DNA of 64,000 bases from Promethearchaeia archaeon (GCA_029856125.1 JAHQWJ010000014.1:128001-192000), one strand, 5' to 3'; shown: positions 49,524-57,523, counted from the stretch's first letter. Made by a program: numbers and translations. Notes: generated from the sequence alone by a model not told the origin.

Positions 49524-51941
49524 TTATAATTTCTTAACTTTCTTGAAATATATCATAATCAAAGCAACTGTACTTATTGTCAGAAATCCAAGTGTCATCA
49601 AAAGTGGAAAACCAGGTATTGCTGCGACTTCAGGACCAATGTAGATGTATGAGACTGCCATGATAATGGAAAATGGACCTGAACTACCTCCTATTGGAAA
49701 AATTATTGTCAAGGAGTTATCCTCATAATCATAAACAAACATATCGGTTGCTGATGTAGGAGCAGCGTCCCATTCATTATTACCACTCATGTTCCATGCC
49801 CAAAAGGTAAGGTTATAGTAATCTAGATCAAAAGAATCGTCGAATTTGATGTAAAAAGTTAAATTCTCTAATCCTGTGGTGTTGGTAATTAAAAGGTCAC
49901 TATAATAAAGTACTGTTCCATTTGTGATCGAGGTGTTTATAGGACTATAGTCCAAAATTGCGTTTACTAACTCTACTTCCGTGTTAGTGGTGATAATGTC
50001 AATACGAGAGGCGGTTATTTCAGTTATAGCATCGTTAGGAACGGATATACTATTTGTTCCAGAGTGAAGCGTTTCGTTAAACATAGGATAGATGCTCATA
50101 TAATTCCAGGTTGTCTCGTCTCCTCCAGGCATGTTCATCCAACCTCCCATAAAGGTTATTCTTCCAGTGGTTGAATCAAGATATGTGTCGTATTCATTAT
50201 TATTCGTAGAATTTCTAAGAACCACATGGTCTTCAGTAAATGTCATCACATCAAACATGCCTCCAAGCAATGCTAAGAGATTTTCAAAATCTTCTCCTGT
50301 AAAGCCTAGAGGTATAAAAAGTGGTGGTGCTGTACCTCCAAACATAGCATATGGCGAGATTGGCCAGTATATATTCGCTTCAAGAAACAAATCATCTCCA
50401 AGATTATCCCAAGTGCCTGTGTCTTCATCAAATTCTTCAAATTCAGCAATAATTGCTTTAAAGAATTGCAATTCCGGTTGTCCAGGGATTGTAGTAAAGA
50501 ACCCCCCGCTATCCACTTCCCATATTGTTAAATTAACAAATTCACTAACAGTAAAAAGAACTGTCGCTCTCATGTACGCTTCGTCATCTTGAGAATTTTG
50601 TTTATAATACACAACATCGCCTATTTCTAAGTCCCAATCTACTAATGTTTGGTGTTGTATTTCGTAATAAAGTTGAACATCACCGTGCTCAGTAATCAGA
50701 AATGATTGCACTATTCCAGTTGATTTTTCGATGACATTATTTACTCCAAAGTTCGTAGAAGTATTTCTTAGGGTAAACTCAAAGTTAATATTTTCTATGA
50801 GCACAAGGCTATTAAATGGAGCATCCCATATACGAAGCGTGTCGGAATTCCACATGAATTCAATATCTTCCTTAGTAGTACTATTGGGATATACAAAATT
50901 AAATTCAGGTGAAAAACTTTCATCAACATATTGGAAATAAAAGTTATTTGCATAACCTATCGGTAAATTTTCTTCTTCTACTTCATACGCATTTCCATTC
51001 CACACGGATAGATTTGAATAAACAGCTTGGAATACCATAGGAATATCGTCTTGCATAAATCCGTTATTAGATTTAGGAAGCATAACATCTGTGAAGTTAG
51101 TAACCTCAATTTTTACATCGTAGGCACTACTACCACCTTCAGTCCAGTCGTAATAAAATGTGTCTCCAATAGTAACTCCCCATTCAATCTCGTCAGTTAT
51201 ATCGTAATCGAAAACTCTTTGTATTGTAAAATTAAGTAGCATTGACTCACCCATTTCAACTTTCATGTATCCCTCTGCATATTCTGCCACTCCATTTGTA
51301 ACATTGTACACGAGGTTAAGATAATAGCCATCAGACGAATTTGTAAAAGACATGGAGTTAGCTGAAGGAATCGAGGAAAATCCATCAAACTGGTTGAATC
51401 TATCAGGAGAAAGGGGATCATAAAACGATTGGTTGAGAATATCGTCTAATACATCGACTTCTAAATTATTTGTCCCATTTAGAGGTAGTATATAGGGTGC
51501 AGCACCCATTCCAGCTCTATATTTATGCTTAATGGTATCTGAGTTGTTAAATCCAAATAACGCGAATTCCATAGGACCATCATAAGATTCCAATTCTCCT
51601 TCTGAAACATTAAAATAACATTGGGTTGCGTTAACCAGCGAAAATTCGTTTAATCCTAACCAATCTGTTGTCACGTTTTCGATTGAAGTTATGTTATATA
51701 TCCATATGTCTTTAAACATCATGGTAACCTCATCATTTGAAGCGTTAGTAAGGATCATTTCTACTTCCCAATAGAGCTCGTCATCAACATCGACGCCCCA
51801 ATGCCAACCGTTATTTACGTGTTCTTCGGGAACATATGGACCCGCTTTTACTGACGTAAAAAACGCACTTAAATTTATAGCTGCTGTGAATGCTAAAAGT
51901 ATGATTACAGTTGATTTTGTTCTGTTTTTTAAATTATTCAA
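49524..51941 (-). CDS. Large acidic cell-surface glycoprotein with signal peptide and IPGF-TM-basic C-terminal sorting signal
   Basis: N-terminal signal ending VKA, many NxS/T sequons, three W(G/D)xxxxDxxY repeats, C-terminal IPGFPLL...FKKVKKL. Confidence 0.85.
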   Translation of the reverse strand: MNNLKNRTKSTVIILLAFTAAINLSAFFTSVKAGPYVPEEHVNNGWHWGVDVDDELYWEVEMILTNASNDEVTMMFKDIWIYNITSIENVTTDWLGLNEFSLVNATQCYFNVSEGELESYDGPMEFALFGFNNSDTIKHKYRAGMGAAPYILPLNGTNNLEVDVLDDILNQSFYDPLSPDRFNQFDGFSSIPSANSMSFTNSSDGYYLNLVYNVTNGVAEYAEGYMKVEMGESMLLNFTIQRVFDYDITDEIEWGVTIGDTFYYDWTEGGSSAYDVKIEVTNFTDVMLPKSNNGFMQDDIPMVFQAVYSNLSVWNGNAYEVEEENLPIGYANNFYFQYVDESFSPEFNFVYPNSTTKEDIEFMWNSDTLRIWDAPFNSLVLIENINFEFTLRNTSTNFGVNNVIEKSTGIVQSFLITEHGDVQLYYEIQHQTLVDWDLEIGDVVYYKQNSQDDEAYMRATVLFTVSEFVNLTIWEVDSGGFFTTIPGQPELQFFKAIIAEFEEFDEDTGTWDNLGDDLFLEANIYWPISPYAMFGGTAPPLFIPLGFTGEDFENLLALLGGMFDVMTFTEDHVVLRNSTNNNEYDTYLDSTTGRITFMGGWMNMPGGDETTWNYMSIYPMFNETLHSGTNSISVPNDAITEITASRIDIITTNTEVELVNAILDYSPINTSITNGTVLYYSDLLITNTTGLENLTFYIKFDDSFDLDYYNLTFWAWNMSGNNEWDAAPTSATDMFVYDYEDNSLTIIFPIGGSSGPFSIIMAVSYIYIGPEVAAIPGFPLLMTLGFLTISTVALIMIYFKKVKKL

Positions 51942-52069: not shown

Positions 52070-53596
52070 TTAATCATTGGATTTAATTAATTTCAACCAA
52101 TTTGAATCGATATTGTTAAGTGCAGCCTCAATTTCTTTTCTAACAGCCCAGTCATCGTCCCATAACGAATTCGCTAAAGAATTTAGCGCTTTTTTATCCC
52201 CTAGTTGCCCTAAGGCTCTTGCAGCGGCAATTCTAATTTTAGGATCGCTGTCTTCAAGCATCTTTATAAATGGAGAAATATCGCTAATGTTTTCGAATTT
52301 TCCTAATGCTAAAGCAATCCAACTTTTAATAAAAAGATCTTCATCGTCAATTAAAGGTAATAGAGCTTCTAAGCTATCTTCACTCCCTAATTTAATTAAG
52401 AGCTTAACTGCTGCTCTTTTAGTCTTCCAATTTGAAGAACTCAAGAAAGGCTTCACCTCATTAACATAAGTTTGATTCTTTTTTTTAGATAAAGCGTTAA
52501 TAGTTACGTCTCGCACTCTATTATCAGGATCATTTAAAAGATCTAATAGTAATGAAACTTGCTGTTTGTTACCTAATTTTCCTATTAATTTTGCACATAG
52601 ACTTCTTATTTTCCATTCCTTAGCCTTAAGACCTTCAAGTACTTGATCTGGAACCTCATCTTTAGAAATCTGAAGAAGTGAATTATAAGCTAATTTTCTG
52701 GTTTTATTATCACTACTCTTGAAGGAATTAATCATATAGTCTACAGACTTCTTATCTTCAAGTAAACCTAAAAGCTTAATTGCTTCCTTCCTCTCTATCA
52801 TATTTTTGCTATTTGCCACGGCATATATTTTTTCATAAGAATCGATGTTCACAAAAATTTGCTTTAACGATTGAATAGATAACCTACGTACATCTTCATT
52901 CTTATTTTTTAATAATCTAAGAAGGGGATCAATTGCTCGTTTGCTATTAATTGAACCTAAAGCTTTTATACTCGCTTTCTTAACTTCTACATCTGTATCA
53001 TCTAATAAATTTATTATTAATCTTGCATCATTGACTTGAAGCAATTTTTCTAAAGCTTGAACGGCATTGCGTTTGACTTCAGCATCATTTTTACGAAGCA
53101 GTTCTTTTAAGTAATTAGTTGAATCGTCGCATCGAATTTTACCCAAGATGATTGGAATTGATTTTCTAATGTATATATTCCCTTTATCGAAAAAGTTTAT
53201 AATTTCACTTACGTCTCCTAATTTTCCTATATTCACGATTGATTTAATTACATCGTCTTTTATTTCTAAAGAGGGATTACTGAGCATTTCTAACAAAGGT
53301 TTAAGAGCAGAGAGGATTTTAATTTTACCTAACGCAACCACCGCTGTTTTTCTAGCTTCTATAAAATTATCTGTAAGAGCTTCAATTAATATTGGACTTG
53401 AAGCTTCTGGTACATTATTTGCTATAAAATTGATAATTGTTGCTCGTACCTCACCGTCAGACTCATTTTTATAATGGGTAGCAAAAAAGCTTAAATTATT
53501 TTTATCAATTAAATTTTCAATTGAATTTATCAAATCTACTTTTTTTTCTGGAACGGTTGCTTTAAGATAGTTTTCCTTAAATTCTTGAAATCCCAT
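52070..53596 (-). CDS. HEAT-repeat protein (likely start MGFQEF at 53596)
   Basis: More than 12 repeats of LxxLLxDxxxxV(R/K)xxAxxALG. Confidence 0.92.
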   Translation of the reverse strand: MGFQEFKENYLKATVPEKKVDLINSIENLIDKNNLSFFATHYKNESDGEVRATIINFIANNVPEASSPILIEALTDNFIEARKTAVVALGKIKILSALKPLLEMLSNPSLEIKDDVIKSIVNIGKLGDVSEIINFFDKGNIYIRKSIPIILGKIRCDDSTNYLKELLRKNDAEVKRNAVQALEKLLQVNDARLIINLLDDTDVEVKKASIKALGSINSKRAIDPLLRLLKNKNEDVRRLSIQSLKQIFVNIDSYEKIYAVANSKNMIERKEAIKLLGLLEDKKSVDYMINSFKSSDNKTRKLAYNSLLQISKDEVPDQVLEGLKAKEWKIRSLCAKLIGKLGNKQQVSLLLDLLNDPDNRVRDVTINALSKKKNQTYVNEVKPFLSSSNWKTKRAAVKLLIKLGSEDSLEALLPLIDDEDLFIKSWIALALGKFENISDISPFIKMLEDSDPKIRIAAARALGQLGDKKALNSLANSLWDDDWAVRKEIEAALNNIDSNWLKLIKSND

Positions 53597-53780
53597 TTTT
53601 CTAATTCTGCATCTTTTCTTTTCAATAAACAATGATTCTAAGTATAGAATCGAGTTCATATTTTTATTTTTAAGTAAATAGAAAGATAGAAATTGAATTA
53701 ATAAACGGTAAAAATATCTATATTAATTGAGGTTTCTTTACCTCTATACATTATAAAAGAAAAGTAAAAAAAATAGAAAT

Positions 53781-54053
53781 TTACGAGCTAAGTAGCTGAA
53801 AGAGAATCGAAGCGTGAGGGATATAGAATTGATCACGCACTTTAATCACGACAGTATGAAAGTACTCAGCTAAACCTAAGAAACCTCGAATAACTGATTC
53901 GTCTTCCTCAAATTTAAATACTATCTTAGCAATAGCAGCGCCAGAGCTGAAGTTAGCTTTTTCATAGACTCTTTCGTCAATTAAGGGAATTTTAAGCTCA
54001 TTAACAATTTCATATACTCGCTTGATGAAGAGTTCTCTCTTGGGAATATTAAT
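53781..54053 (-). CDS. Uncalled ~90-aa hypothetical protein with an ATT start
   Basis: Open frame INIPKRELFIKRVYEIVNELKIPLIDERVYEK...HASILFQLLSS*; AGGTG directly upstream; globular-looking composition; T-rich tract after the stop. Confidence 0.7.
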   Translation of the reverse strand: MNIPKRELFIKRVYEIVNELKIPLIDERVYEKANFSSGAAIAKIVFKFEEDESVIRGFLGLAEYFHTVVIKVRDQFYIPHASILFQLLSS

Positions 54054-54310
54054 ACACCTATTATATTGAATACTAATTATTAAAATTACAAATGAAATAT
54101 GATATATAATATATTAGATTTGGAACATTTAATAGTTTATTTTTAACTGTGAAAAATTTTGAAGCATTGAATTTAATTTAGGTAAAACTATGATACAAAT
54201 ATTATACAAAAATAAAAATATAAATTAATAAACTACTACTATATTACTACTATAGCTATATAGTATTCTTTTAAAAAATATGATTAAAATTTTGGAGTAA
54301 ATGAACTACC

Positions 54311-54964
54311 TTGGTTTCGAAAGAATATAAGAAGATTGAGAGAGTCGTTAATTTTATGAAAAAGGGTTTAACCTCTTTAAGCGACGACTTGGAAGAGACG
54401 GTTAAAGGGATTACTGATTTTAAAAAATCGTTAAATAAAGCCTTGAAAGATTTGAAAGATGTTTCTCTTGAACAAGGAGTGAAAACTGTGAGTACATCCT
54501 CTAAGAAAGTTATTGCACCTGTGGATGGTACGGCCAAAACTGCAGCGGCAAGTACTTTATTTAGTTTATTAAGTGGTAGTCCTGCTCCAGTCCAAGAAAT
54601 GCCTCCAGCTACCGCAGCTGTAACTTCACCAACTGTAGGTGGCCCCCCTAAAGTTCCTGGAAAGGGACCTCCAAAGAGACCTGGAGGGAGTAGACCTCCA
54701 AAAGCACCCAGCACAGGTGGACCTCCTAAACGAACCAATTTACCTCCGGCGCCAAAATTGCCTCCTAGTTCGGTTGGTGTACCTCCTAAAGCTCCCGGTT
54801 CAAGAGTTGTACAAGCGCCCACATTTGCTAAAAGACCAACGCCCCCAGCAGCACCAGCTGCATCCCCTGCACCAGCAACTCAAGCAGGAGGAGGTTTAAG
54901 TTCTCTCCGAGATGAAATGTTAGAGGAATTAAATCGTTTAAAGAAGATTATGAGAGGAGATTAG
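54311..54964 (+). CDS. Coiled-coil + proline-rich protein with a WH2/VASP-like C-terminal helix
   Basis: Heptad-like N-terminus, repeated PPK units, C-terminal GGGLSSLRDEMLEELNRLKKIMRGD. Confidence 0.8.
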   Translation: MVSKEYKKIERVVNFMKKGLTSLSDDLEETVKGITDFKKSLNKALKDLKDVSLEQGVKTVSTSSKKVIAPVDGTAKTAAASTLFSLLSGSPAPVQEMPPATAAVTSPTVGGPPKVPGKGPPKRPGGSRPPKAPSTGGPPKRTNLPPAPKLPPSSVGVPPKAPGSRVVQAPTFAKRPTPPAAPAASPAPATQAGGGLSSLRDEMLEELNRLKKIMRGD

Positions 54965-55094
54965 GAGTTAACTCTTTTTCTCATATCTAATACTTATTTT
55001 TATACCTTTTTATCGCATATCTTTATAACTTACAAGATTCAATATTTTTAATTCATAACATTTTTAATTATCGATTGTGAACTATTTAGTATAG

Positions 55095-55841
55095 ATGGAT
55101 AAAAACAATTCTATCATCTGCGAAAACAAAATACCAATCGTTGTTCCTAAATGTATAATGGTGTTAGCTGGTCATCCAGATGATGAAATAATATCCTGTG
55201 GTGGTACCCTTCTAAAATACCAGTCTTTAGGTTCAAAAATAATCGTTGTGGTTGCAACAAGTGGTATTGGGGGGTATGCAAAAAGTGATCAAAAAGAAGG
55301 AATTATTAATCAAAGAAAACACGAGCTTGATTCAGTTCGATCATCGTTGAAATGTGAAATTATCGAGTTAGAATTTCCTAATATGGAAATAACCCGAGAA
55401 AAAATCTCTAAGATAACAAATCTCATAAGGGACATTAAGCCTCAAGTTATTTTATTGCCTCATCATTCTGATTTTCATCGAGTACATCGAAACTTGGCAT
55501 TAATCTCGAGAGAAGCTATTTATCATTGTTCAACAGGTAAAGCTTATGGAGGATACGAAAGAAACTGGACTCCATTAGGCGTGTATTATTACGAAGGACC
55601 TTCGTGTAAATTTCAATACATTGAGAGTTCAGTTTTTGTTATAGTAGATATCGAAGAATTTTGGAGTAAGAAAAAAGAGATATTTAATGTTGCCTACCTT
55701 ACTCAGAAAGAAGTTCTAGAAAGAGTAATGGAGTGGGCGGAAGATACTGCGATTTTAAGGGGTAACGAAATAAATTCATCGTATGGGGAAGCTTTTATAC
55801 CCGAGACAACTTATACACCACTTAAGCTTTTATTAGTTTAG
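55095..55841 (+). CDS. PIG-L/LmbE family deacetylase
   Basis: GHPDDE, D.H..H, YGEAF. Confidence 0.9.
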   Translation: MDKNNSIICENKIPIVVPKCIMVLAGHPDDEIISCGGTLLKYQSLGSKIIVVVATSGIGGYAKSDQKEGIINQRKHELDSVRSSLKCEIIELEFPNMEITREKISKITNLIRDIKPQVILLPHHSDFHRVHRNLALISREAIYHCSTGKAYGGYERNWTPLGVYYYEGPSCKFQYIESSVFVIVDIEEFWSKKKEIFNVAYLTQKEVLERVMEWAEDTAILRGNEINSSYGEAFIPETTYTPLKLLLV

Positions 55842-55901
55842 TATAGATATAAAAAGATTAAATATTGTTAATATAATAAGCGAATAAATTGCTAAAATTA
55901 A

Positions 55902-57026
55902 TTGGATATTATGGGCAATCTTACTGTTGTTTTAGACATTGGACAGTTTTCAGCAAAAGCGGGTTTTGCTGGCGAAGATATGCCAAGCCAAGTATTCTTC
56001 ACAATCGTAGGAAAGCCTAAATATAGACAAATCGATTACGAGTATGGAAGTGCTCGAAAAGAAGACTACTACGTCGGAGATGAGATTCAATCTTTAGGAC
56101 TATACAAAGTGTTATACCCTATTGATAAGGGTGTAATACAAGACTGGGTCTCATTCGAGAAAATAATTGATTACATTTTCTATAATTTAAGAGTCGACCC
56201 TAGTTTAGTCAATGTCTTATTTGCGGTACATCCTTTGTTTCCTCGCAATAATTTAGAGAAGCTTTTTAAATTATTTCTGGAGAAATATCAATGTAATGCG
56301 TTTTATCCTGTATTAGATTCCATGCTCACTCTGTATGCTGGTGGATTTCAAACGGGTTTGATAGTAGAGATCGGAGATAGTCTAACAAGAATAGTCCCCA
56401 TCTATCAAGGTTATAAACTTGATCACGCAATTAGAATTCTTGAAATCGGTGGAAGAACGTTAACAAGGTATATGGAAAAAATATTAGGTACAAAAGGTTA
56501 TTCAGCAGATTCTTCTATAAGAAGAGAACTCGTCAGAGCTTTAAAGGAAAAAGCGTGTTTTGTTTCCCTTGATTACAAAGAAGATTTGAAGAGAGTTGAA
56601 CAATACGAAAAAGAGTATTCCCTACCTGATGGTTCTACAATTTCTTTAGCTAGAGAACGATTCGAAGTTCCAGAGTTGCTGTTTAATCCCTCAATCGAAT
56701 TAGAAGAATCCTCTCTCCCAGAAGCAATCTTGGATGTAATCGAAATGTGTGACTTAGATGTCCGTCCAGATTTATTAAATAACATTTTTTTATCGGGAGG
56801 GTCTTCGATGTTTCCAAATCTCAAATCTCGAATATACCAAGAATTAGAATTAGAATTGGCGCGACGTAAAAAGAATAATCAAATCATCAAAATAATAGCA
56901 CCTCGGGAACGTGTTTTCTCAGTTTGGGTTGGAGGATCGATTTTAGCAATGATCCCAGAATTCGAGCAGAATTGGATAAGCAGAGCGAAATATTTTAACG
57001 AAGGTATCCCTGAAGATATTCTTTAA
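55902..57026 (+). CDS. Actin-family protein (divergent Asgard actin-related protein)
   Basis: KAGFAGED, VGDE, YPI..G, VPIYQG, GGRTLT, KEK.CFV, Y.LPDG, ERF.VPE.LF.P, LSGGSSMFP, SVWVGGSILA. Confidence 0.95.
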   Translation: MDIMGNLTVVLDIGQFSAKAGFAGEDMPSQVFFTIVGKPKYRQIDYEYGSARKEDYYVGDEIQSLGLYKVLYPIDKGVIQDWVSFEKIIDYIFYNLRVDPSLVNVLFAVHPLFPRNNLEKLFKLFLEKYQCNAFYPVLDSMLTLYAGGFQTGLIVEIGDSLTRIVPIYQGYKLDHAIRILEIGGRTLTRYMEKILGTKGYSADSSIRRELVRALKEKACFVSLDYKEDLKRVEQYEKEYSLPDGSTISLARERFEVPELLFNPSIELEESSLPEAILDVIEMCDLDVRPDLLNNIFLSGGSSMFPNLKSRIYQELELELARRKKNNQIIKIIAPRERVFSVWVGGSILAMIPEFEQNWISRAKYFNEGIPEDIL

Positions 57027-57157
57027 ATAATTACTTAAGATTAAAGCATCTATTTTTCAAAGTATCATTTTAATATTACAAGCATATTACAATTTTTTAA
57101 AAATATTATTCTGATATTATATCTTAGTGGAGTTTCATCTCGATTGGAGAAATAAAA

Positions 57158-57523
57158 ATGGAAGAACCTCAAAATACTAGTTTTGAACAAAGCAAAATTC
57201 TAAAAAACTTTTATAAACCTGACTATTCTGGTCTGTTTAATAAAATAAAAGACATTAAAACTCCGGTAAAAAACGAAATTTTAATGACTTTACTTGATGG
57301 GAATTGGCATACTGAATTGGATTTGATAAGAGTAGCTAAACAAAAAATGAGATATTTGGGTGCTGTAACCTTAGGGACAATGATTCACTCTTTAAACCAT
57401 CACCTAAAGAACGATTACGTTGAAAAAAGCGTGATAAACGGAAAATTATCTTACAGAATCTCAGATAATTATGTCGGTCTTACTCGAGCAGCATACAACA
57501 AGTATAGGTTTAAAATGGACTAA
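57158..57523 (+). CDS. Putative winged-helix protein
   Basis: ILMTLLDGNWHT...helix...VEK....K..YRI wing-like pattern. Confidence 0.6.
   Translation: MEEPQNTSFEQSKILKNFYKPDYSGLFNKIKDIKTPVKNEILMTLLDGNWHTELDLIRVAKQKMRYLGAVTLGTMIHSLNHHLKNDYVEKSVINGKLSYRISDNYVGLTRAAYNKYRFKMD

Follow-up and report, generated by a model that had tools for sequence, protein, structure and literature searches.

Does an actin-related protein (ARP) gene that lies close to a gene for a proline-rich (Pro-rich) protein mark a dedicated actin-regulation module in Asgard archaea? The question is raised by positions 52070-57523 of a 64,000-nt stretch of a Promethearchaeia archaeon genome (GCA_029856125.1, JAHQWJ010000014.1:128001-192000; the whole stretch is called the window below), which the original prediction had read as a simple module of an ARP plus its activator. 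Genes were identified from open reading frame (ORF) listings, stop-to-stop frames and Pfam and NCBIfam profile scans of the window proteins, and the six genes that had been described, including a small uncalled gene that we term SMALL, all lie where they had been placed and in the layout given for them. We consider it moderately probable that separate units have come to lie side by side here in one lineage and that the locus is not a dedicated ARP-activator module. What is well supported is a conserved pair, SMALL and the Pro-rich "tether" gene, which stands beside the ARP gene in one Lokiarchaeial family. Families, genera, genomes, loci and contigs are labelled below with the prefixes f, g, G, L and C, f1 being the family of the window's genome.

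By its profile matches, the Pro-rich protein, 217 amino acids (aa) long, is a member of an undescribed family spanning the Asgard archaea. It has no assigned Pfam or NCBIfam family, hmmscan against Pfam-A at E <= 10 returned only noise matches (DUF885, DUF948 and DUF3086), NCBI names the family members "hypothetical protein," and in the ESM Atlas the protein sits in an unnamed 357-member "hypothetical" cluster from Promethearchaeota. Family alignments bear out the layout that had been noticed in the sequence, with an N-terminal helical region (~aa 8-70), an arm rich in PP dipeptides and a terminal amphipathic helix containing RLKKI. An LFSLLSG motif (~aa 83-89) reads AASTLFSLLSG here and DDVFDMF or EDLWSLL elsewhere, and the arm, which is of variable length, has GPPK/PPxP motifs and contains LPPAPKLPP. 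The tail is extremely conserved, following the pattern [GS][LI]xxL[RK]xEM[LM]xE[LI]xR[LI]K, and positions L199, M203, E206, R209, L210 and K211 are invariant or nearly so among 23-28 sequences from more than 12 families. The TTG start of the window's copy is replaced by ATG at the same first codon in the homologue at L024.

A family profile built from Lokiarchaeial members and searched in 301 genomes sampled across the Asgard phylum matched 162 of them. Full-length forms (200-245 aa) occur in f1, f2, f6, f8 (a family with small genomes of 1.3-1.4 Mb), f13, f17, f24 and f26. Elsewhere the arm and tail are carried by transmembrane-anchored proteins, which overall span 300-570 aa: they end ~300-350-aa proteins with one N-terminal transmembrane helix in f10, f12, f18, f21 and f32, and they are found on ~560-aa proteins with many transmembrane segments in f27. 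Clear ARP orthologues (>50% identity) are present in families f1, f2 and f3, and three f6/f7 genomes that carry the Pro-rich gene (G057, G059 and G060, 82-94% complete) yielded no ARP orthologue, their best actin match of 43-44% lying at the level of Lokiactin (43%). As far as sequence comparison can tell, the Pro-rich family is much older and wider than the ARP paralogue.

SMALL is the only neighbour of the Pro-rich gene that recurs across classes, and it does so in at least eight Asgard families. It lies adjacent to the Pro-rich gene or within ~3 kb of it in f1, f2 (g5), f3, f5, f6, f7, f8, f17, f24 and f26, on one contig and ~0.2-3 kb apart in nearly all listed genomes of these families, and all four orientations are seen (divergent, convergent and tandem either way). 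SMALL is present in 62 of 68 f1, 6 of 7 f2, 4 of 4 f8, 16 of 19 f17 and 3 of 3 f26 genomes, as well as in f5 and f6, and it was not found in the transmembrane-anchored lineages f10 (0 of 28 genomes), f27 (0 of 21) and f32 (0 of 11). Its phyletic pattern thus tracks the short soluble form of the Pro-rich protein, with f13 and f24 as exceptions, from which we infer a joint function of SMALL and the soluble N-terminal domain. In distant lineages the remaining genes around Pro-rich homologues have housekeeping roles and offer no hint of function (purA, an Eco57I-type methylase, HflX, LysRS, AlaRS, NUDIX, RpiA, a PilT-like ATPase, EndA, PhoU and adenine deaminase).

Linkage of the Pro-rich gene to the ARP gene, the core of the proposed module, holds in every sampled f1 genus and breaks down outside that family. 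In ~30 genomes of the same genus SMALL is divergent from the Pro-rich gene, which is followed by the PIG-L deacetylase gene and then the ARP gene, and the same order is retained in nine further f1 genera (g18 to g25 and others) at identities down to 61% for the ARP and 44% for the Pro-rich protein. The f2 genomes hold both genes on the same replicon or contig at distances of 44 kb (G044), 71 kb (G042), 100 kb (G050) and 273 kb (G055, L. ossiferum); there the ARP gene is preceded by a Ras-like GTPase gene (g2, g8 and g9) or by PIG-L (g5), and the Pro-rich gene is flanked by purA and a methylase gene. In the f3 genome G038, SMALL, the Pro-rich gene and PIG-L stand together and an ARP fragment lies on a separate contig. 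These overlapping gene pairs across f1, f2 and f3 would fit an ancestral order of SMALL, Pro-rich gene, PIG-L and ARP gene that has since decayed, and, taken as gene orders, give no sign that a Pro-rich-ARP unit has been selected for.

The neighbouring actin paralogue has conventional actins as its best solved relatives (E ~1e-92) and is one of four actin-family genes in the genome, ranking second (302 bits in the genome search) to a Lokiactin that is encoded separately on contig C63 (441.7 bits). It is not Lokiactin, since that separate gene is present, the two are 43% identical, and the phosphate loops of the paralogue are non-canonical: DNGTG of Lokiactin is DIGQF in the first loop, and DIGDGVSH, which covers the second loop and the H161-equivalent position, is EIGDSLTR, with a further change from MQAV to LDSM at the Q137-equivalent position. 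The NCBIfam crenactin equivalog scored 32.2 bits against a cut-off of 630. In Ca. Lokiarchaeum ossiferum the orthologue is UYP44126.1, to which the window protein is 50% identical, compared with 43% for that genome's Lokiactin; because UYP44126.1 is one of three non-Lokiactin homologues that were grouped with ARPs, in trees that name neither Arp2 nor Arp3 (PMC9834061), "ARP" is a fair label for the window gene. In L. ossiferum, Lokiactin transcripts were severalfold above those of the other three actin homologues (PMC9834061). The UYP44126.1 locus differs from the window in that the gene, orthologous as it is, lies 273 kb away from the Pro-rich gene and follows a gene for a small GTPase. More generally, in Promethearchaeum- and Lokiarchaeum-type f2 genomes a ~190-aa Ras/Rab-like GTPase is encoded directly ahead of the ARP orthologue on the same strand (L056 2701-3282, L057 575-1162 and L058 2827-3393), and upstream of it lies a divergent conserved gene (...NFENGLFYCLSFLA...).

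The original prediction went further and saw in the Pro-rich protein an activator of the neighbouring ARP, resembling nucleation-promoting factors or VASP, in which an oligomerisation domain, a Pro-rich segment and WH2 would drive nucleation based on the ARP or on actin. The protein does share with WASP/WAVE VCA proteins, Ena/VASP and bacterial WH2 plus Pro-rich effectors an anchor or oligomeriser, a proline-rich arm and a short L-K-K-hydrophobic helix near the C-terminus, and its gene is close to the ARP gene on the same strand in every sampled f1 genus, even in those that lack PIG-L between them. The details of the tail point away from such a factor. In a WH2, which binds actin in the groove that separates subdomains 1 and 3, a linker of 4-6 residues joins a three-turn amphipathic helix to an LKK[TV] motif in extended form. 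In the Pro-rich tail, RLKKI comes only 2 residues past the preceding hydrophobic position, the heptad spacing runs through LKK as in a continuous helix, and the second K of LKK varies across the family (RLKSI, RIKEI, RLKAL and RLREI). No Pfam WH2 (PF02205), WASP or EVH1 match was obtained at E <= 10, and the tail cannot be recognised as a WH2. A VCA type is likewise not borne out: the protein ends ...RLKKIMRGD, 7 residues after LKKI, with no connector helix, acidic stretch or tryptophan after RLKKI. Ena/VASP proteins have EVH1 at the N-terminus and a tetramerising coiled coil at the C-terminus; here the helical region or coiled coil is N-terminal and not C-terminal, and the tail is the last element. 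The arm has PP dipeptides only and not the long proline runs that are bound by profilin or EVH1. Together with a linkage that is specific to one family and is lost in f2 and f3, a Pro-rich family that extends phylum-wide, past the range of the ARP and into genomes in which no ARP orthologue was found, and SMALL as the constant neighbour, these features make the simple ARP-plus-activator module very unlikely. In the broader sense of any actin-activator module the idea is possible, and comparative genomics as it stands lends it no support.

A more general actin reading, rather improbable in our estimate, is that the end helix binds Lokiactin in its hydrophobic groove, where WH2 motifs and the C-terminal arcadin-2 helix sit on their own actins, and in f1 also binds the neighbouring ARP, which would make the family a missing Asgard-wide actin tether or nucleation-elongation factor and not an ARP-specific one. 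Arcadin-2 of Pyrobaculum, the crenactin regulator treated by Izore et al. in 2016, is reportedly a small protein that is encoded near the actin homologue and binds the actin groove with its C-terminal helix. It may be the nearest archaeal precedent for how the end helix could act, with the differences that no sequence similarity was detected in the profile search of solved structures, the window ARP is not a crenactin (32 bits versus 630), and the conserved neighbour of the Pro-rich gene is SMALL and not actin. This reading draws on a flexible arm that ends in an amphipathic helix, the tail, on the existence of transmembrane-anchored forms and on the position of the gene near an actin paralogue in one family; moreover, the Pro-rich family is widespread in Asgard archaea, as Lokiactin is (PMC9834061). 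Published Asgard actin regulators also leave a gap that such a protein could fill, as only profilins and gelsolins have been named and WH2-like LKDV motifs were placed only inside two-domain gelsolins (bioRxiv 10.1101/2025.11.30.690169), and polyproline motifs receive only generic mention in the papers that were searched. Countering this, the helix-to-LKK spacing and the heptad register are not those of WH2, a profile search of the tail against solved chains, including actin-binding peptides, gave nothing significant, and in none of the lineages whose neighbourhoods were examined was the gene seen to be syntenic with those for Lokiactin, profilin or gelsolin. If the helix did dock on Lokiactin, the tether would be soluble and accompanied by SMALL in Lokiarchaeia and f8 and membrane-anchored elsewhere, and would be a functional forerunner or analogue of WH2 plus Pro-rich assembly factors.

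The best hit of the tail profile among solved structures (E 0.39) was the localisation peptide of an encapsulated ferritin (...GSLGIGSLRQE), which we rejected as a short chance match that leaves the conserved EMLxELxRLKK uncovered. When the tail profile was run against the own genome, in view of the idea that the helix might be portable, it retrieved only the Pro-rich gene itself and one weak look-alike. This 147-aa protein (L128 1474-1917, minus strand; G000:C63 ~109.2 kb) has the same layout of helix, GPP arm and tail, with the arm GGPPGGPPPPPGGPP including a true P5 run and the tail reading ...VSLRGAIMGELKQLFSK, and its gene adjoins one for a 210-aa coiled-coil protein.

The tail may also be compared with those of ESCRT-III proteins, in which, as in the Pro-rich protein, a flexible and partly proline-rich linker leads to an amphipathic helix at the very end. 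The two Snf7-family proteins of the own genome end ...KELEEELNKLKSRD and ...KLEDEIDKLRKELEGS, and the Pro-rich tail ...DEMLEELNRLKKIMRGD shares EELN[KR]LK with a Snf7-family tail (...EELNKLKSRD versus ...EELNRLKKIMRGD). The end helix could accordingly be MIM-like and have as its docking site the MIT domain of Vps4 or another MIT-like helical domain, with LPPxPKLPP, the proline motif upstream of it, being MIM2-like; recruitment or regulation of the ESCRT ATPase would then be the role of the family. We regard this as unlikely. The resemblance spans only ~8 residues in a protein that has no Snf7 core, and the tail profile failed to retrieve the ESCRT-III tails of the own genome at E <= 1. The MIM1 consensus is (D/E)xxLxxRLxxL(K/R) at the extreme C-terminus, and the register of the Pro-rich tail is one residue off it. 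No synteny with ESCRT genes was seen in the examined neighbourhoods. In our estimate, an actin groove would be a rather improbable partner and an MIT-type domain an unlikely one, and the remaining weight goes to something else or unknown.

Several observations weigh against our preferred reading of separate units. The order of the Pro-rich and ARP genes outlasts the loss of PIG-L in g22 and g23, where the gene is gone from its position and the Pro-rich gene lies directly upstream of the ARP gene; this would fit a functional tie within f1. The pairing with SMALL is not absolute, as SMALL was not found in f13 and gave merely one weak match in f24 despite the short soluble form of the Pro-rich protein in both. 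Finally, actin assembly factors of the WH2 type are likewise built with an oligomerising or membrane anchor, a Pro-rich arm and an amphipathic end helix, as the tether is, and Lokiactin equals the Pro-rich family in its breadth among Asgard archaea.

The uncalled small gene of the original prediction is real, with 88 aa instead of the 90 aa suggested for it. SMALL escapes ORF calling with ATG, GTG and TTG although its frame (53781-54113, minus strand) is open from stop to stop, the sole such codon in it being a GTG 22 codons ahead of the stop. The start is an ATT (54047-54045), and orthologues begin with ATG, TTG, ATC or ATT at the identical codon position; CTG apparently serves as the start in one relative. 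The AGG TGT upstream of the start is retained in most same-genus orthologues. Because of this non-standard start, SMALL is missed or truncated by gene callers. The varying start codon may also reflect translational control. The protein is highly conserved: public data contain 395 homologue clusters of SMALL, all "hypothetical" (the top 120 at >=73% identity), and the ESM Atlas record begins at residue 43 and belongs to no named cluster. The AF2 model (pLDDT 90) has an alpha/beta order of helix, strand, helix and three strands. No convincing fold relative emerged from Foldseek against the PDB (best E 0.26), and the highest Z from VIA-align, run on 48,161 chains, was 4.4, for partial beta-alpha-beta-beta-beta matches to glyoxalase-like modules that allow no assignment.

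In at least 13 of the 123 f1 genomes with a SMALL match (135 were searched), the gene is interrupted by inserts of 29-33 nt. Their positions are fixed, with site 1 separating codon I8 from K9 and site 2 separating codon L22 from I23; G321 carries both, each 29 nt long and frame-shifting. Thirteen interrupted orthologues parse as canonical bulge-helix-bulge introns, splicing being predicted from the DNA, with a 4-bp central helix between two 3-nt bulges, one on either strand, each predicted to be cut after its second nucleotide so that the reading frame is restored. At site 1 the helix strands are TCAT (H) and GTGA or GTGG (H'), with bulges AA|T (TA|A in G321) and AA|A, and at site 2 they are CCGT (H) and GCGG (H'); the predicted cuts give exactly ...ELFIKRVYEIV... 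and ...KIPLIDERVY.... In the inner hairpin 97.6% of cells are paired, compared with 31-47% in slid controls, three pairs are changed on both sides, and the covariation score was reached by 0 of 500 shuffles. Contigs from runs of two studies carry the insert unchanged, and an intron-less relative in the same sediments diverges precisely at the predicted 3' boundary. SMALL as it stands in the window is intron-free. In G018 (L027 ~2393-2440) a single extra C stands exactly at site 1 (...TTT C ATT AAA...) and shifts the frame, which may reflect a sequencing error, a pseudogene or the scar of a lost intron.

The only published precedent that we found for such an intron within an archaeal coding sequence is cbf5 of Crenarchaeota (PMC2738675), and a recent preprint on Asgard introns covers tRNA genes only. 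The intron of the crenarchaeal cbf5 pre-mRNA is likewise of the bulge-helix-bulge type, within a protein-coding gene and patchy among relatives (PMC2738675). The inserts in SMALL differ from it in phylum and gene, and they measure 29-33 nt and occupy two insertion sites.

Downstream of the ARP gene, the sixth gene encodes a 121-aa protein that had been called a winged helix-turn-helix (wHTH) protein, and its model agrees with that call. The protein has no Pfam match. In its AF2 model (pLDDT 74) three helices (36-45, 53-63 and 69-83) make up the core, two strands (88-93 and 96-101) form a beta-hairpin wing and a long helix (103-120) occupies the C-terminal end, and the top Foldseek matches are all wHTH proteins (LmrR/PadR, MarR, HlyU, AspA and TubR; probability 1.00, E from only 3e-3, the best, to 1e-2). 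Full-length orthologues are limited to f1, where the gene lies downstream of the ARP gene in all nine other genera that are readable past it, twice as a tandem duplicate (g22 included). This constant order, and the presence of the centromere-binding proteins AspA and TubR among the fold matches, could recall a ParM/ParR-like DNA-segregation pair of an actin-fold ATPase and a DNA-binding adaptor. We hold this to be extremely improbable, as ordinary MarR/PadR regulators rank equally in the fold search, the ARP is close to actin (43% to Lokiactin) and not ParM-like, the genes are chromosomal and the f2 orthologues have no wHTH gene. Nor is there an array of iteron- or centromere-like repeats near the ARP and wHTH genes, where we found none beyond codon-level repeats inside the Pro-rich gene. 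The model suggests that the wHTH protein is probably an ordinary local regulator. In the complete 4.4-Mb f2 genome G044, an 806-aa ORF contains a domain that resembles it (C1:2254705-2254956), and the ARP orthologue (2259716-2260819) follows ~5 kb downstream.

The PIG-L protein stays below every NCBIfam equivalog cut-off (BshB1 equivalog, 75.9 versus 182.5), so that no specific enzyme is assigned. T-tracts serve as archaeal terminators, and the 130-bp T-rich gap that had been noticed after the Pro-rich gene does hold five T5 tracts; from these we take the spacer to be, probably, a terminator and promoter region that parts the Pro-rich gene from PIG-L. The HEAT gene at the other end of the locus was correctly recognised as such, and its proposed membership as a scaffold in a conserved unit falls away: it is adjacent in some same-genus genomes (L005, L006, L008 and L009), is merely nearby or absent in other genera, and is a variable neighbour outside any conserved unit. 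Beyond it, the window encodes an 805-aa Asn/Thr-rich secreted protein (49524-51941, minus strand), probably a surface protein, with a weak C-terminal Loki-CTERM sorting signal (17.5 bits versus a cut-off of 19.9). An orthologue of this protein adjoins SMALL in genus g18 (L105).

Table 1. Features of the locus (window positions) and sites of inserts in SMALL orthologues of other genomes (positions within the named loci)
Feature	Position	Strand	Evidence
HEAT-repeat (PBS-lyase-type) protein, 529 aa	52070..53659	-	Pfam HEAT_2 E 3.5e-65, 7 matched stretches
SMALL, 88 aa, ATT start	53781..54047	-	Open frame, homologues
AGGTG Shine-Dalgarno-like motif, 7 nt upstream of the SMALL ATT	54055..54059	-	Sequence reading
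Pro-rich "tether" protein, 217 aa, TTG start	54311..54964	+	Family alignments, profile search; no Pfam/NCBIfam family
C-terminal helix GGGLSSLRDEMLEELNRLKKIMRGD of the Pro-rich protein	54887..54961	+	Most conserved part of the family
AT-rich spacer, 130 bp, five T5 tracts	54965..55094	+	Sequence reading
PIG-L/LmbE-type deacetylase, 248 aa	55095..55841	+	Pfam PIG-L (PF02585) 76.2 bits vs cut-off 28.2
Actin paralogue (ARP), 374 aa	55902..57026	+	Pfam Actin (PF00022) 305.9 bits vs cut-off 27, residues 8-368
Winged-helix (MarR/PadR-like) protein, 121 aa	57158..57523	+	AF2 model, Foldseek
Insert site 1 in SMALL orthologues	L021 1125-1183; L033 2639-2697; L023 2707-2765; L007 1099-1154; L116-L118; L120-L123; L111 394-448		
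Insert site 2 in SMALL orthologues	L024; L111		

We propose that the locus brings together three units that would be functionally independent of one another. The first would be the ancient Asgard gene pair of SMALL and the Pro-rich protein, the latter acting as a flexible tether that is anchored at one end, extends through a long disordered PP-rich arm and finishes in a near-invariant amphipathic helix, which may serve as a docking motif. As the tail is conserved in soluble and transmembrane forms alike, the end helix would dock onto a conserved partner common to all Asgard archaea. The anchor takes two forms: in Lokiarchaeia, f8 and several other families it is a soluble helical domain that co-occurs with SMALL and probably binds it, and in other classes it consists of one or more transmembrane segments, which would replace the function of SMALL and the soluble domain. 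The PIG-L deacetylase would constitute the second unit, and the third would be the non-Lokiactin actin paralogue with its altered nucleotide-hydrolysis residues, followed by the wHTH protein that probably regulates it.

The picture of an ARP gene beside a WASP-like gene derives from the gene order of one family and is not to be cited as an ancestral Arp-activator module. SMALL, for its part, is prone to miscalling owing to its ATT, ATC, TTG and CTG starts and, in some species, its mini-introns, and automatic catalogues would miss or truncate it, as happened in the ATG/GTG/TTG calling of the window and in the ESM Atlas record. The Pro-rich family could link membranes to a conserved machine, be it actin, ESCRT/Vps4 or something unknown. 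With only profilins and gelsolins published as Asgard actin regulators, this family is a concrete candidate: widespread, tethered to the membrane in some classes and equipped with a near-invariant, putative docking helix at the tip of a flexible arm, it is a testable candidate cytoskeleton regulator.

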